A DNA stretch of 64,000 bases from an uncultured Planctomycetia bacterium (GTDB lineage Bacteria; Omnitrophota; Gorgyraeia; Pluralincolimonadales; Pluralincolimonadaceae): the NCBI GenBank assembly GCA_964650515.1, contig CAZYUB010000001.1, positions 132,640 to 196,639 on the forward strand, read 5' to 3'. This document shows, one piece after another, positions 5,443 through 62,133 of this stretch. Under the pieces are notes generated by a model. The model did no database searches. It worked only from the letters and a program-made list of their open reading frames with translations, and was not told the origin of the DNA. The stretch's first letter is position 1. Each line of letters starts with the position of its first letter. Both the position numbers and the translations under genes were made by a program.

Positions 5443-5475
5443 AAAGCCGGAATTATGTTAAATCCCCGATTGACA
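5443..5475 (+). terminator. putative hairpin (CCCGA..TCGGG) followed by a T-run after the M48 peptidase gene; TTGACA -35-like element at 5470-5475
   Basis: 5 bp stem and TTTTTGT tract. Weak. Confidence 0.3.
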
Positions 5476-5592
5476 CCCTCGGGTTTTTGTGGTAATTTAT
5501 AGCTCCACCAGTCAGCTTTCCTGGCTGATAGTTCATTGATAAAGGCGAACCGGTGGTTTTGCGCTGTTCGACAAAATTACGGGGGTTCGCCG

Positions 5593-6285
5593 ATGAAAGC
5601 GGAAGAAAGGAAGCTCGCAAGAGAGCTTCGTAAGCAAGGATGGTCGCTTAGGGCGATATCGAAACATACGGGGTGTTCTAAAGCTTCAATAAGCAACTGG
5701 ATACGAGATATCCCTCTTACAGATGAGCAGATAGCCCGTTTAAAGTCCAACCAGGACAAGGGAAGGGCAGCGGCGGCAAAGCATCCGAACGGCCCTAAAA
5801 TGAAATGGGCAAGGATACGTAAAGATATCTCAGATTCCGCGGAAAGAGAAATCCCCTTAAGGTATTCAACCTTCGTTCTGAAAATAGTAGGCATTGCGCT
5901 ATATTGGGGAGAAGGCTCGAAAGCGGGAAATAATACGGTGGGTTTTAGTAATTCCGATCCCGTCATGATCCGGTTGATGATGCGGTTTTTCAAAGATGTT
6001 TGTAATGTGAAGGGCTCTAAATTTCGCGGAGGGGTTCAAATCCATCCGCACCTGGATATAAAAAAAGCCGAAATATTTTGGTCCCAAATTAGCGGGATCC
6101 CATTAAAGCAATTTCATAAAACTAACATAGCCGTCAGCAGGGCGAGCAAAAACAAAAGAGACACGTTGCCGTTAGGCACATTCAAAATAGTAGTTTCCGA
6201 TGTCCGTCTCCAGTCCACGATAAAGGGTTGGATCGAGGGCATGAAAAGATGGTCGAATATAAGGGCGCTTAGCTCAGCTGGTTAG
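5593..6285 (+). CDS. HTH-domain protein with LAGLIDADG-like motif (putative homing-endonuclease-like), low G+C
   Basis: N-terminal HTH (LRKQGWSLRAISKHTGCSKASISNWI). IALYWGEGSK resembles the LAGLIDADG motif. A/T-rich codon usage unlike neighbouring genes. The last 7 codons are encoded by the 5' end of tRNA-Val. Confidence 0.6.
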   Translation: MKAEERKLARELRKQGWSLRAISKHTGCSKASISNWIRDIPLTDEQIARLKSNQDKGRAAAAKHPNGPKMKWARIRKDISDSAEREIPLRYSTFVLKIVGIALYWGEGSKAGNNTVGFSNSDPVMIRLMMRFFKDVCNVKGSKFRGGVQIHPHLDIKKAEIFWSQISGIPLKQFHKTNIAVSRASKNKRDTLPLGTFKIVVSDVRLQSTIKGWIEGMKRWSNIRALSSAG

Positions 6286-6341
6286 AGCGGTTGATTTACA
6301 TTCAACAGGCTTCAGAGGTTCGATCCCTCTAGCGCCCACCA
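6263..6341 (+). tRNA. tRNA-Val (anticodon TAC)
   Basis: Cloverleaf folded by hand: acceptor GGGCGCT/AGCGCCC, anticodon loop TTTACAT, T-loop TTCGATC, encoded CCA. Confidence 0.85.
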
Positions 6342-6355
6342 TATAGATTTACAGC

Positions 6356-6434
6356 GGGCCCGTGGTGCAGCCTGGTCTAGCACGTCAGATTGTCGATCTG
6401 AAGACCGCGAGTTCAAATCTCGTCGGGCCCGCCA
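6356..6434 (+). tRNA. tRNA-Asp (anticodon GTC)
   Basis: Acceptor GGGCCCG/CGGGCCC, anticodon loop TTGTCGA, T-loop TTCAAAT, encoded CCA. Confidence 0.85.
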
Positions 6435-6573
6435 TTAATTCCCCTACATGGGCGTAATGAATTACTCCGAGTTCAGCCGTGGAGGATTCCGGAGGAATCC
6501 GACCGGCGCTTTGAACGAGGAGTAAGAAGCATGAGGCGTTATAGATGGATAGTATAGGCACATAGGTAAACCC

Positions 6574-6606
6574 AAGGGCGTTAGGAAACTAACGCCCTTT
6601 TTTGTT
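6574..6606 (+). terminator. Rho-independent terminator after the tRNA-Val/Asp pair
   Basis: AAGGGCGTTA-GGAAAC-TAACGCCCTT stem followed by TTTTTTG. Confidence 0.75.
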
Positions 6607-24161: not shown

Positions 24162-24184
24162 CTAGTTCCCTAAGAAATCTACCG

Positions 24185-24477
24185 CGGGGTGGAGCAGCCT
24201 GGTAGCTCGCAAGGCTCAATGTCCTGTCAAAGAACGGGACGATGGGCTCCTCGGCCGGAAACGGCCGAAGGATAGTCTGTCAAATTCGGTGAAGCCCGAA
24301 AAGGTAATACCGAGCCAAGCCTGTCGAAAGACGGGAAGGTGTAGAGACTAAACGGCAGATCCCGGTTTTCCGGGAAAGATATAGTCCAGACTACGAACTC
24401 CCGAAAGGGAGGCGGCGAAAGCCGAAGTAGCATGCATAACCTTGAGGCCAGAGGTTCAAATCCTCTCCCCGCTACCA
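24185..24477 (+). tRNA. initiator-like tRNA-Met (anticodon CAT) gene interrupted by a group I intron; exon 1 is 24185-24216, exon 2 is 24435-24477
   Basis: Exons give acceptor CGCGGGG/CCCCGCT+A+CCA with a C1/T72 mismatch. D-arm GGAGCAGCCTGGTAGCTC is identical to E. coli tRNA-fMet. Anticodon stem CAAGG/CCTTG with loop CT|CATAA. T-loop TTCAAAT. Confidence 0.8.
24217..24434 (+). mobile_element. group I (self-splicing) intron in tRNA anticodon loop
   Basis: Contains the exact group I S element AAGATATAGTCC and the R-like AGAGACTAAAC. Terminal G precedes the 3' exon. Inserted after U33 of the anticodon loop. Confidence 0.75.
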
Positions 24478-60250: not shown

Positions 60251-60312
60251 CCCCAAATGAGCGGCCGCATTACCTTTGACACTCCCGGGCAGGTGTGGTA
60301 AGATTTACAGCT

Positions 60313-62133
60313 ATGAAGCTCTACCTTCGGCTGCTTAAATTCGTAAAACCGCACCTGCCGACGCTCGTTTTCGCAAACCTATGCATGATAATAAACAGCG
60401 TCGTCTTCGGTGTTGTCTCGACAACGGCCATAATGCCCGTAGTGAACAACATACTGCGTGGCGAGCCGATGTCTATCCCGGAGGGTATGCCCCAGTTCGC
60501 GAAAGAGTTAATAGCCGCGATAAATTCCGTCCCGAGACTTCCGTTGCTGGGCTGGCTAATAACCGGCATAATATCGGCATTCTTCCTTAGGGGCCTGTTC
60601 ATGTTCCTTCAGTCGTATTTAATGACGGACGTGAGCACGAAAGTACTAACCGACCTCAGGAGGGTGGTTTACGATAAATTGCTGGAATTCTCCCTGGACT
60701 TTTATAATAAATCCCACACCGGCGCGCTTGTCTCACGCATTACCTACGATACGAGCATAATCCAAAACTCAATAACTGAGGGCGTGACAAACCTTATATA
60801 CCAGAGCTCCCAGGTAATTGTTTATATTGCCATGATTTTCCTATTAAGGTCGTGGTTTGGCATCGACTGGATGTTGCTTATAATCATTTTTATAGTCCTG
60901 CCGCTTATATTGTTTCCGATAGTCCGTGTAGGCAAGAAGCTCAGAAAGATATCAAAGCAGACCCAGGAGCAGATGGGTTCGGTCACTACTACGCTCATAG
61001 AGACGATAAGCGGCATGCGCATAGTAAAAGCGTTCTCTATGGAGGAGGAAGAAAGGAAGAAATTCTCATCGCAAAACCAGGGTCTCTATAAAATGTTCAT
61101 GAAGTCCGCGAAGAGGGAGAAACTCCTCGATTGGGCGATAGAATTTATAGGTATCTCGGTAGTTTCCTTCGCTTTATGGCTCGGAGGAAAGCATATAATA
61201 GTCAGCAGCGGAGACCCGGGCGGTTTTATAGCTTTTATAGTAGCTGCCTTCCTGATCGCAAGGCCGTTAAGCCAACTCGGCAAGATCAATTCGATAAACC
61301 AGAAAGCTCTCGGTGCCGCAGAAAGGATATTCGATATACTTGACGCCAAGTCAACCATTTGCGAGAAACCAGGCGCAGCAAACCTGGGCCCTTTCAACGA
61401 CAGGATAGTATTTGATGACGTCGATTTCTCCTACGGCGAAGAGGCTGTACTTAAAAACGTCAGTTTAGAAGCGAAGAAAGGCGAGATAATCGCGATAGTC
61501 GGCCCGAGCGGGAGCGGAAAATCGACCATCGTTAACCTGATCCCGCGCTTCTACGACGCCGGCAAGGGCAACATAACTATTGACGGCACAGGGATTAAGG
61601 ATGCCGCGATCGCCTCACTGCGCGGGCAGATAGCGATAGTCACGCAGGAGACGATACTCTTCCACGATACTATAAAGTCGAACATCTCCTACGGCAGGCA
61701 GGGGGCCTCCGAGGAAGATATAACAAGGGCGGCTAAGATAGCCAACGCGCATGACTTCATATCGAACCTGCCGGAGGGGTATGATACGGTCGTGGGCGAG
61801 CGGGGCCACCGTTTGTCCGGCGGCGAACGCCAGAGGATAGCGATAGCCAGGGCCGTGCTCAAGGACGCGCCCATCCTGATACTCGATGAGGCGACCTCAC
61901 AGCTTGACATGGAGTCCGAGGCGGTAGTCCAGGACGCCATCGAGAAGCTTATGAAGGGCAAAACAGCCTTTGTGATAGCCCACCGCCTCTCGACGGTCAA
62001 GTTTGCCACGAAAATAATCGTTTTGGAGAAGGGAAAGATAATAGAGACGGGCACCCACGAAGAACTGCTCCGCAGGAACGGCCTCTACAAGCGCCTTTAC
62101 GACCTCCAATTCCTCGAAGAGGGGATTGCCTGA
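60313..62133 (+). CDS. ABC transporter permease/ATP-binding protein (MsbA-like exporter)
   Basis: 6-TM domain plus NBD with Walker A GPSGSGKST, signature LSGGERQR, Walker B ILILDEATS. Confidence 0.9.
   Translation: MKLYLRLLKFVKPHLPTLVFANLCMIINSVVFGVVSTTAIMPVVNNILRGEPMSIPEGMPQFAKELIAAINSVPRLPLLGWLITGIISAFFLRGLFMFLQSYLMTDVSTKVLTDLRRVVYDKLLEFSLDFYNKSHTGALVSRITYDTSIIQNSITEGVTNLIYQSSQVIVYIAMIFLLRSWFGIDWMLLIIIFIVLPLILFPIVRVGKKLRKISKQTQEQMGSVTTTLIETISGMRIVKAFSMEEEERKKFSSQNQGLYKMFMKSAKREKLLDWAIEFIGISVVSFALWLGGKHIIVSSGDPGGFIAFIVAAFLIARPLSQLGKINSINQKALGAAERIFDILDAKSTICEKPGAANLGPFNDRIVFDDVDFSYGEEAVLKNVSLEAKKGEIIAIVGPSGSGKSTIVNLIPRFYDAGKGNITIDGTGIKDAAIASLRGQIAIVTQETILFHDTIKSNISYGRQGASEEDITRAAKIANAHDFISNLPEGYDTVVGERGHRLSGGERQRIAIARAVLKDAPILILDEATSQLDMESEAVVQDAIEKLMKGKTAFVIAHRLSTVKFATKIIVLEKGKIIETGTHEELLRRNGLYKRLYDLQFLEEGIA

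Follow-up and report, generated by a model that had tools for sequence, protein, structure and literature searches.

A probable HTH-LAGLIDADG homing endonuclease cassette in the leader of a tRNA-Val/tRNA-Asp operon from an Omnitrophota bacterium

The 64,000 nucleotides (nt) of DNA analyzed here, referred to below as the window (assembly GCA_964650515.1, contig CAZYUB010000001.1, GTDB lineage Omnitrophota), carry a 740-nt cassette on the forward strand at positions 5523 to 6262. The cassette sits in the leader of a tRNA-Val/tRNA-Asp operon, between the tRNA promoter and position +1 of tRNA-Val. It holds all but the end of an open reading frame (ORF) for a protein with a helix-turn-helix (HTH) followed by a LAGLIDADG-fold domain. 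We think it probable that this is a compact mobile cassette for a free-standing HTH-LAGLIDADG homing endonuclease specialized on tRNA junctions. Free-standing homing endonuclease genes are, of course, an already known kind of element. What is new is 5-fold: (i) the combination of this fold with an HTH, (ii) the host range, (iii) the strict linkage to tRNA junctions, (iv) an ORF that ends inside a tRNA gene, and (v) a conserved hairpin cassette in bacterial chromosomes. The literature searched contains no description of the family.

How are the limits of the cassette known? Syntenic relatives were retrieved through homologues of the upstream M48 peptidase, the gene order being DUF362, SurE, an unnamed gene, DUF4416, and M48. 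The cassette is present in the window and in its closest relative, L085, which is approximately 92% identical around the locus, and it is absent from L086, L087, and L088, whose loci contain no match to the family anywhere. In the empty genomes, TTGACAccc...TGGTAATTTATA is followed after 23 to 28 nt by GGGCGCTTAGCTCAG, the start of tRNA-Val. The window has the same promoter and leader (5470 to 5522), then 740 extra bases, and then the same tRNA-Val. Alignment of filled and empty sites places the end of the common tRNA leader (5499 to 5522, forward strand, ending ...gctttcc) directly against the first base of the cassette, and presence and absence at this one site are thus precise, with boundaries known to the nucleotide. 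The first-pass annotation of this DNA had pointed to the synteny between the M48 peptidase and tRNA-Val as informative, and it is exactly there that the gene is missing from the three relatives. The identity of four neighboring proteins to those of the window is 90 to 97% in L085 (filled), 67 to 87% in L086, L087, and L088 (empty), and 64 to 78% in L003 (filled). With carriers both closer to the window and farther from it than the empty genomes, the pattern requires no fewer than two events, either two gains or one gain and a nucleotide-exact loss. As an aside, the contigs of L089 and L090 end no more than 75 nt from the M48 gene and that of L087 ends at the 3' end of tRNA-Asp, which suggests that assemblies tend to break at this locus.

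The requirement for an exact loss bears on a conservative alternative, in which the gene is an old, nonmobile resident of the tRNA operon, the empty sites are clean deletions, and the association with tRNA reflects nothing but cotranscription. Its position relative to tRNA-Val is indeed fixed throughout the Omnitrophota, the gene order is conserved, and its divergence is similar to that of its neighbors. However, a deletion would have had to excise exactly 740 nt and rejoin the promoter, leader, and tRNA without an error of a single base, on one occasion or more, within a lineage surrounded by carriers. A second difficulty comes from a conserved Leu-Val-Phe-Gly tRNA array of Patescibacteria, in which the cassette occupies different spacers in different genomes: the Val|Phe spacer in L024 and L058 and the Phe|Gly spacer in L041, L048, L060, L063, and L070. 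The unoccupied spacers of this array measure only 4 to 21 nt. Together with the clade structure, the mosaic tract, and the persistently low G+C described below, these points make a permanent resident improbable.

The ORF itself runs from an ATG at 5593 to a TAG at 6283 to 6285 (forward strand; an alternative TTG start lies at 5536) and encodes 230 amino acids. tRNA-Val(TAC), identified by both ARAGORN and Rfam, occupies 6263 to 6341 on the same strand, and its nucleotides 1 to 23 double as the end of the ORF and its TAG stop. As the first-pass annotation had proposed, this overlap of 23 nt supplies the final seven codons and the stop from the acceptor and D-arm sequence. Could this be an accident? 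The 90%-cluster database holds 410 relatives of the protein, and most of the closest are exactly 230 amino acids long and terminate in RALSSAG, RAVGAIG, or RAVSSVG, endings which indicate that their ORFs also read into a tRNA. The identical arrangement, including the 23-nt read-in to tRNA-Val, recurs in no fewer than 16 Omnitrophota genomes, with proteins that are just 58 to 77% identical. Across the Omnitrophota, the ORFs stop 23 nt (sometimes 10 nt) into tRNA-Val(TAC) or inside tRNA-Glu(CTC). The stop codon within the tRNA is a conserved design feature rather than an accident of the window locus.

The same recurrence disposes of the idea, put forward in the first-pass annotation, that the gene arrived recently: a recent, unique insertion was rejected on finding the arrangement across the Omnitrophota. 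The first-pass annotation had also remarked on the composition of the gene. The measurements hold up well and mark the gene as compositionally foreign to the window. Its G+C is 0.451 (5593 to 6261) versus 0.559 for the whole window, with only 0.3% of 670-nt windows as low. G+C at third codon positions is 0.49 versus 0.72 ± 0.07, the lowest of the 42 ORFs in the window, among which it is also the most A+T rich. Codon choice differs as well (per 1,000 codons, ORF versus window: AAA, 77 versus 25; TTA, 18 versus 5; ATA, 54 versus 38; AGA, 18 versus 2.6). However, gene G+C is below flank G+C at nearly every locus of the family; being poorer in G+C than its surroundings characterizes the family at large and is not peculiar to the window copy. 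A resident gene would not be expected to stay below its host in this way. The sole other region of the window as A+T rich as the cassette is a patch at approximately 60500 to 61470 (G+C of ~0.45) inside a long ORF (60295 to 62133).

The family is very large. An exhaustive search returned 5,643 clusters at 50% identity with E values of ≤1e-3, of which 3,058 reach ≤1e-10. At least 586 species genomes carry a copy; these belong to the Omnitrophota (52 to 75% identity to the window protein) and the Patescibacteria (31 to 49%), and some actinomycetes have one too. Public records label the members "hypothetical" or "helix-turn-helix domain-containing." Context was analyzed for 86 copies at 82 loci, 3 copies lying at contig ends and leaving 83 assessable, and a tRNA gene is found within 150 nt of 75 of the 86. 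The gene of the window is, as the first-pass annotation described, free-standing and next to tRNA genes. Patescibacteria copies begin 58 to 60 nt past one tRNA and abut the next, at junctions that include Val|Phe, Val|Leu, and Phe|Gly and the 5' sides of Pro, Arg, and Gly tRNAs. Some loci have a second copy, approximately 30% identical to the first, beside another tRNA. In a neighbor-joining tree, the proteins group by the type of the adjacent tRNA and across phyla: the Val(TAC) clade covers both phyla and stands apart from the Omnitrophota Glu(CTC) clade, its members being closer to each other across phyla than to the Glu-linked proteins of the same phylum. This, too, is hard to reconcile with a permanent resident of the operon. 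Nonsense or frameshift copies occur at L019, L022, L049, and L058, and about 94% of copies are intact.

What kind of protein does the cassette encode? Residues 1 to 41 form the HTH, residues ~42 to 90 a helical linker, and residues ~91 to 222 the LAGLIDADG-fold domain, while residues 223 to 230, encoded by tRNA-Val sequence, are a disordered tail. Pfam HTH_23 matches residues 5 to 38 (E = 2e-5, exactly at the gathering score). A confident AlphaFold model from 36 homologues (predicted local distance difference test score, 85.5) consists of a helix and then an alpha/beta domain, whose core has the alpha-beta-beta-alpha-beta-beta-alpha order of the LAGLIDADG fold with the motif helix at the domain interface. 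That motif, GIALYWGEGSK (5890 to 5922, forward strand; residues 100 to 110), is of the dodecapeptide type, with a conserved acidic residue followed by glycine, and Glu107 is its putative metal-binding residue. A profile of 109 diverse members matches I-DmoI at an E value of 0.002 and aligns the family's LYWgEGsK with the second I-DmoI motif, LYVAEGDKT, bearer of the catalytic Glu. Among these 109 members, G108 is invariant and E107, G100, and Y104 are each conserved in at least 90%.

Natural fusions tell a similar story. Tandem-fused homologues in Allonocardiopsis and Actinomadura have two HTH-domain units per chain, and in P0195, P0215, P0220, and P0223 both copies retain the E-G motif. P0220 has one HTH and two LAGLIDADG-fold domains. 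In AlphaFold 2 modeling, the two domains pack as in I-DmoI. Two of the fusion genes (L083, 3001 to 4599, and L084, 3001 to 4515; Actinomadura parmotrematis and Allonocardiopsis opalescens) lie 40 to 80 nt upstream of tRNA-Gln(TTG), ahead of glmU-prs. A third cultured actinomycete, A. atramentaria, also has a homologue, the locus context covering the other two only. The Pfam annotation of the actinomycete fusions is limited to the HTH.

The LAGLIDADG fold of the C-terminal domain is, in our view, established by these comparisons; its catalytic competence is likely, and the 230-residue protein probably acts as a homodimer. The first-pass annotation's reading of an HTH followed by a LAGLIDADG-like segment is thus supported by fold and profile, though by no Pfam LAGLIDADG model. 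Pfam LAGLIDADG_1, _2, and _3 and WhiA match neither the window protein nor any of eight isolated C-terminal domains, including the family consensus, and no LAGLIDADG model is among the 25 most-matched Pfam families listed for the 109 members. Equally, Pfam assigned the segment to no unrelated housekeeping family. On long homologues, Pfam finds repeated HTHs only, and a single-protein phmmer search of PDB sequences gave chance leucine-rich-repeat matches only. A GIY-YIG domain was not matched in Pfam, PHROGs, or NCBIfam. There is no recombinase domain, the cassette is a single ORF, and att-type repeats are absent apart from short pseudo-tRNA 5' fragments in some loci. The cassette does not belong with tRNA-targeting integrative elements, which bring an integrase or recombinase gene and att repeats.

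The first-pass annotation had credited the gene with a promoter-like element of its own, TTGACA-17-TAATTT. The element is real (5470 to 5498, forward strand; TTGACA at 5470 to 5475, 17 nt, and TAATTT at 5493 to 5498) but has a different owner. It is found at the same place in the gene-less L086, L087, and L088, 23 to 28 nt ahead of tRNA-Val, and this conservation in relatives without the gene identifies it as the promoter of the tRNA operon, which also transcribes the cassette. A consensus scan did not call it, the -10 hexamer matching the consensus at only three of six positions. Its -35 hexamer lies in the loop of a small hairpin (5465 to 5488, CCCGA...TCGGG) that is followed by TTTTT and was likewise not called by the scan; this hairpin may, in addition, weakly terminate transcription of the M48 peptidase gene that lies upstream.

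A second promoter emerges from alignment of the regions upstream of the ATG. Most relatives have TTGACA, 17 nt, and TATAAT there. An inverted repeat, GAACCnnnnnTATTAT...ATAATAnnnnnGGTTC, holds this -10 box in its 5' arm and the Shine-Dalgarno sequence GAGG in its 3' arm, which ends 3 to 6 nt ahead of the ATG. At the equivalent position in the window (5536 to 5564, forward strand), the -35 is TTGATA (5536 to 5541) and the -10 position reads TTGCGC (5559 to 5564). The window's RNA hairpin (5544 to 5591, forward strand; GGCGAACC...GGTTCGCC) partly sequesters the Shine-Dalgarno sequence GGGGG (5581 to 5585) and ends 1 nt before the ATG. Its minimum free energy is -23.7 kcal/mol (z = -3.37), and none of 200 shuffled sequences was as stable. 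The hairpin is present across the family, and its inner pairs covary. Additionally, at 31 of 49 loci the sense strand gives a more stable fold than the antisense strand does (P = 0.025).

The outer arms of the hairpin introduce the most serious rival. WhiA (DUF199) is a LAGLIDADG-derived transcription factor with two degenerate domains and a C-terminal HTH; it is without the catalytic acidic residues and is a fixed housekeeping gene. The family might likewise be a domesticated, sequence-specific regulator that controls its own expression along with the neighboring tRNA operon, is no longer a nuclease, and binds GAACC/GGTTC half-sites resembling the T-loop-coding box. We regard this WhiA-like DNA-binding role as unlikely, though it has much to recommend it. 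While the inner pairs vary, the GAACC...GGTTC arms are almost invariant in both phyla: 27 of 76 loci have GGTTC no more than 16 nt from the start (background, 1.4%), and 23 of the 76 have the two pentamers together (background, 0.09%). In the window, the pentamers in the two arms (5544 to 5551 and 5584 to 5591) together resemble the T-loop-coding box GGTTCGAAnCC. The gene is kept, often in multiple copies, in the very small genomes of Patescibacteria, and comparison of syntenic pairs shows the protein to be at least as well conserved as the housekeeping proteins around it. There is also a precedent for a double function, I-TevI serving as an autorepressor in addition (PMC2988022).

Against a regulator stand four observations. 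(i) The acidic residue of the motif, which WhiA lacks, is kept in at least 90% of members. (ii) Precise presence and absence in close relatives, and exchange of the domain together with tRNA sequence, are unexpected of a core regulator. (iii) There is little reason for a reduced genome to maintain several divergent paralogues with a different tRNA beside each. (iv) The hairpin loop can be as short as 4 nt or longer than 20 nt, and G:U-type cells outnumber A:C cells (~24 versus ~7 in our own tally from the pair-type counts), pointing to RNA structure. For the last of these reasons, the palindrome as a DNA operator of fixed spacing was rejected in favor of an RNA hairpin. A dual role as both nuclease and DNA-binding regulator is possible.

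The exchange just mentioned is visible in the comparison of the window with L085. Their DNA is 85 to 100% identical from 3800 to approximately 5800, a stretch that takes in the leader and hairpin as well as the first ~70 codons. Through the nuclease domain and into the tRNA-Val anticodon arm (up to ~6320), only 52 to 77% is identical, and identity recovers to 95 to 100% over the rest of tRNA-Val, the spacer, and tRNA-Asp. This drop and recovery mark an exchange among close relatives of a segment that comprises the nuclease domain and two-thirds of tRNA-Val, from its 5' end. An immobile resident should not leave such a mosaic tract in two genomes with ~92% identity; judged from the DNA sequence, the tract is consistent with coconversion of flanking target sequence. 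The gene order of the two genomes breaks exactly after tRNA-Asp (downstream of 6438), making the 3' side of the tRNA pair a rearrangement point. Separately, the tRNA-Val variable region (6306 to 6314) is longer in the window and L085 (...GGCTTCAGAGG) than at the empty sites (...GGTCAGAGG), and several other cassette-linked tRNA-Val copies, not all, have one extra base. It could be a target-immunity polymorphism, or it could be meaningless.

Where does the tRNA part of the ORF come from? A clue lies upstream of the gene, where truncated copies of the tRNA-Val 5' end (9 to 25 nt long, 80 to 102 nt upstream of the ATG) are present in 6 of 24 Omnitrophota loci, versus 0.7 expected (summed test, P = 0.001). 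The clear fragments are in L003, L005, L008, L013, L015, and L020, and that of L005 has a D-stem type different from the working tRNA. In the window, a possible decayed copy of tRNA-Val nucleotides 1 to 14 lies at 5523 to 5536 on the forward strand (TGGCTGATAGTTCA versus GGGCGCTTAGCTCA, 9/14 identical), in register with empty-site tRNA-Val, though by an ungapped test (7/12) the window fragment is not significant. Judging from such fragments, a moving cassette may bring a new 5' part of the tRNA along, which would explain the stop codon in the tRNA. A joint version of these ideas can be offered, tentatively and with considerable doubt. The element would live in an RNA gene without an intron, inserting into tRNA-Val with its own replacement tRNA 5' part as the source of the stop codon and leaving the 5' pseudofragment of the host behind. 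The protein would find tRNA genes through the T-loop-coding GGTTC/GAACC box, a sequence it would also keep at its own start as a regulatory clamp.

How might a homing cassette of this kind operate? The HTH would serve as an N-terminal tether for the single LAGLIDADG-fold nuclease domain, and a dimer would cut a tRNA-Val locus that lacks the cassette whenever the two came together in a cell. Repair would then copy the cassette and the adjacent part of the tRNA, the conserved tRNA sequence acting as a homology arm. Transcripts from the strong tRNA promoter would carry the hairpin that hides the ribosome-binding site, keeping nuclease levels low and ribosomes off the tRNA precursor. In most relatives, the second promoter, with its -10 box inside the 5' arm of the hairpin, would give rise to a translatable mRNA; in the window this promoter is degenerate. 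Finally, cleavage by RNase P at position +1 of tRNA-Val would strip the stop codon, and only unprocessed precursors would give a normally terminated protein.

Several results weigh against a homing endonuclease cassette and must be set beside this proposal. Residues 90 to 230 have no match in Pfam, NCBIfam, or PHROGs, where only the HTH was matched, and a Foldseek search against the PDB returned weak OmpA-like matches and no LAGLIDADG protein. Searches of INPHARED phages and IMG/VR found no relatives. The -10 box of the internal promoter is degenerate in the window copy. Filled and empty alleles hardly differ in the 5' half of tRNA-Val, which does not explain how a filled allele would escape cutting; a recognition site confined to that half would not account for immunity. 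In syntenic pairs, the protein is conserved as much as or more than its housekeeping neighbors (L001/L008, 86.7% versus 63 to 84%; L017/L021, 74.6% versus 57 to 68%). Such conservation and the high proportion of intact copies are no less compatible with a function useful to the host than with pure selfishness.

A last alternative turns on RNA. The first-pass annotation drew attention to a group I intron in the same genome. The intron is real, confirmed by Rfam (24216 to 24413), but no link to the HTH-LAGLIDADG gene was found, and such a connection was rejected: the intron lies 18 kb away, in a tRNA-Met gene, and is without an ORF. The split tRNA-Met(CAU) (24183 to 24477, forward strand) has a 1:72 mismatch and is initiator-like, and the intron (24217 to 24434, 218 nt) falls between its nucleotides 33 and 34, the position reported for cyanobacterial tRNA-fMet introns. 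ARAGORN missed this tRNA in the raw sequence, and the spliced exons fold as tRNA-Met. Might the protein then be a maturase-like or tRNA-processing cofactor that binds the precursor encoding it? Some LAGLIDADG proteins are group I intron maturases, the host phyla are rich in such introns, as the tRNA-Met of the window illustrates, and the gene is cotranscribed with tRNAs. However, the adjacent tRNAs have no introns, and the family is linked to many types of tRNA, none of them the intron-bearing one of the window. The HTH domains match DNA-binding families, and the empty-site relatives have the same tRNA genes, intact, without the protein. A role directed at RNA is, on this evidence, highly improbable.

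The remaining features of the locus are few. tRNA-Asp(GTC) follows at 6356 to 6434 (forward strand; ARAGORN and Rfam) in the same transcription unit as tRNA-Val. A terminator-like hairpin and T run lie at 6574 to 6599 on this strand, the probable end of the unit, and the ~140 nt between the two (6435 to 6573) have no assigned feature.

If homing is the correct explanation, homing endonuclease genes colonize the tRNA junctions of bacterial chromosomes and not only those of phage T4, and their activity could explain differences in the spacer length and order of tRNA arrays in Patescibacteria and Omnitrophota. It would also add a very large, unannotated branch (~3,000 clusters at 50% identity) to the LAGLIDADG proteins, with a domain for which Pfam has no model. 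LAGLIDADG endonucleases are the enzymes used as meganucleases, and this branch, which adds an HTH tether and includes single-chain versions found in nature, could be mined for new site-specific nucleases. An ORF that ends inside a tRNA behind a translation-blocking hairpin is, moreover, a natural case in which the interplay of tRNA processing, translation, and selfish-gene control can be tested. Were the joint version with a replacement tRNA 5' part and T-loop box also true, there would be a general, tRNA-type-specific drive system shaping tRNA arrays in Patescibacteria, Omnitrophota, and some actinomycetes.

How does the family compare with known systems? The closest analogue is SegB of phage T4, a GIY-YIG homing endonuclease encoded between tRNA genes that spreads the neighboring tRNA genes and recognizes the TψC-coding motif of tRNA genes (PMC2330249). 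In both systems, a free-standing gene lies between or next to tRNA genes, the ribosome-binding site is in a hairpin with an internal promoter, and tRNA sequence appears to be coinherited, SegB spreading the surrounding tRNA genes and the tract exchanged here including tRNA-Val. The TψC-coding motif read by SegB has a counterpart in the GGTTC/GAACC motifs conserved beside the gene, whose role is putative. SegB is an analogue rather than a fellow member, however: the fold here is LAGLIDADG with an N-terminal HTH instead of GIY-YIG, the genes reside in cellular chromosomes (Omnitrophota, Patescibacteria, and actinomycetes) instead of in a phage, there are thousands of members in clades tied to particular tRNAs, and the ORF ends inside the tRNA.

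The control of expression has its parallel in T4 I-TevI, I-TevII, I-TevIII, and SegB and in Aeh1 MobE, whose ribosome-binding sites are hidden on read-through transcripts while a promoter inside the hairpin yields a translatable mRNA; the rationale is to keep ribosomes out of the structured RNA into which the ORF extends (PMC2988022). The I-Tev enzymes and MobE share with the present family a sequestered ribosome-binding site on read-through transcripts, a hairpin-internal promoter, and an ORF that extends into structured RNA. They differ in that the promoter here is of the sigma-70 type, not a T4 late promoter, and is degenerate at its -10 in the window, and in that the structured RNA is a tRNA, not an intron. 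With I-DmoI and I-CreI, the family has in common the motif match, an acidic residue aligned to that of the second I-DmoI motif, and the existence of single-domain and fused two-domain versions; it is set apart by its lack of detection with Pfam LAGLIDADG models, the extra N-terminal HTH and long helical linker, and the absence of an intron or intein. From WhiA, finally, it differs in having one domain after an N-terminal HTH, in retaining the Glu, in giving no match to the Pfam WhiA model, and in being present or absent among close relatives.

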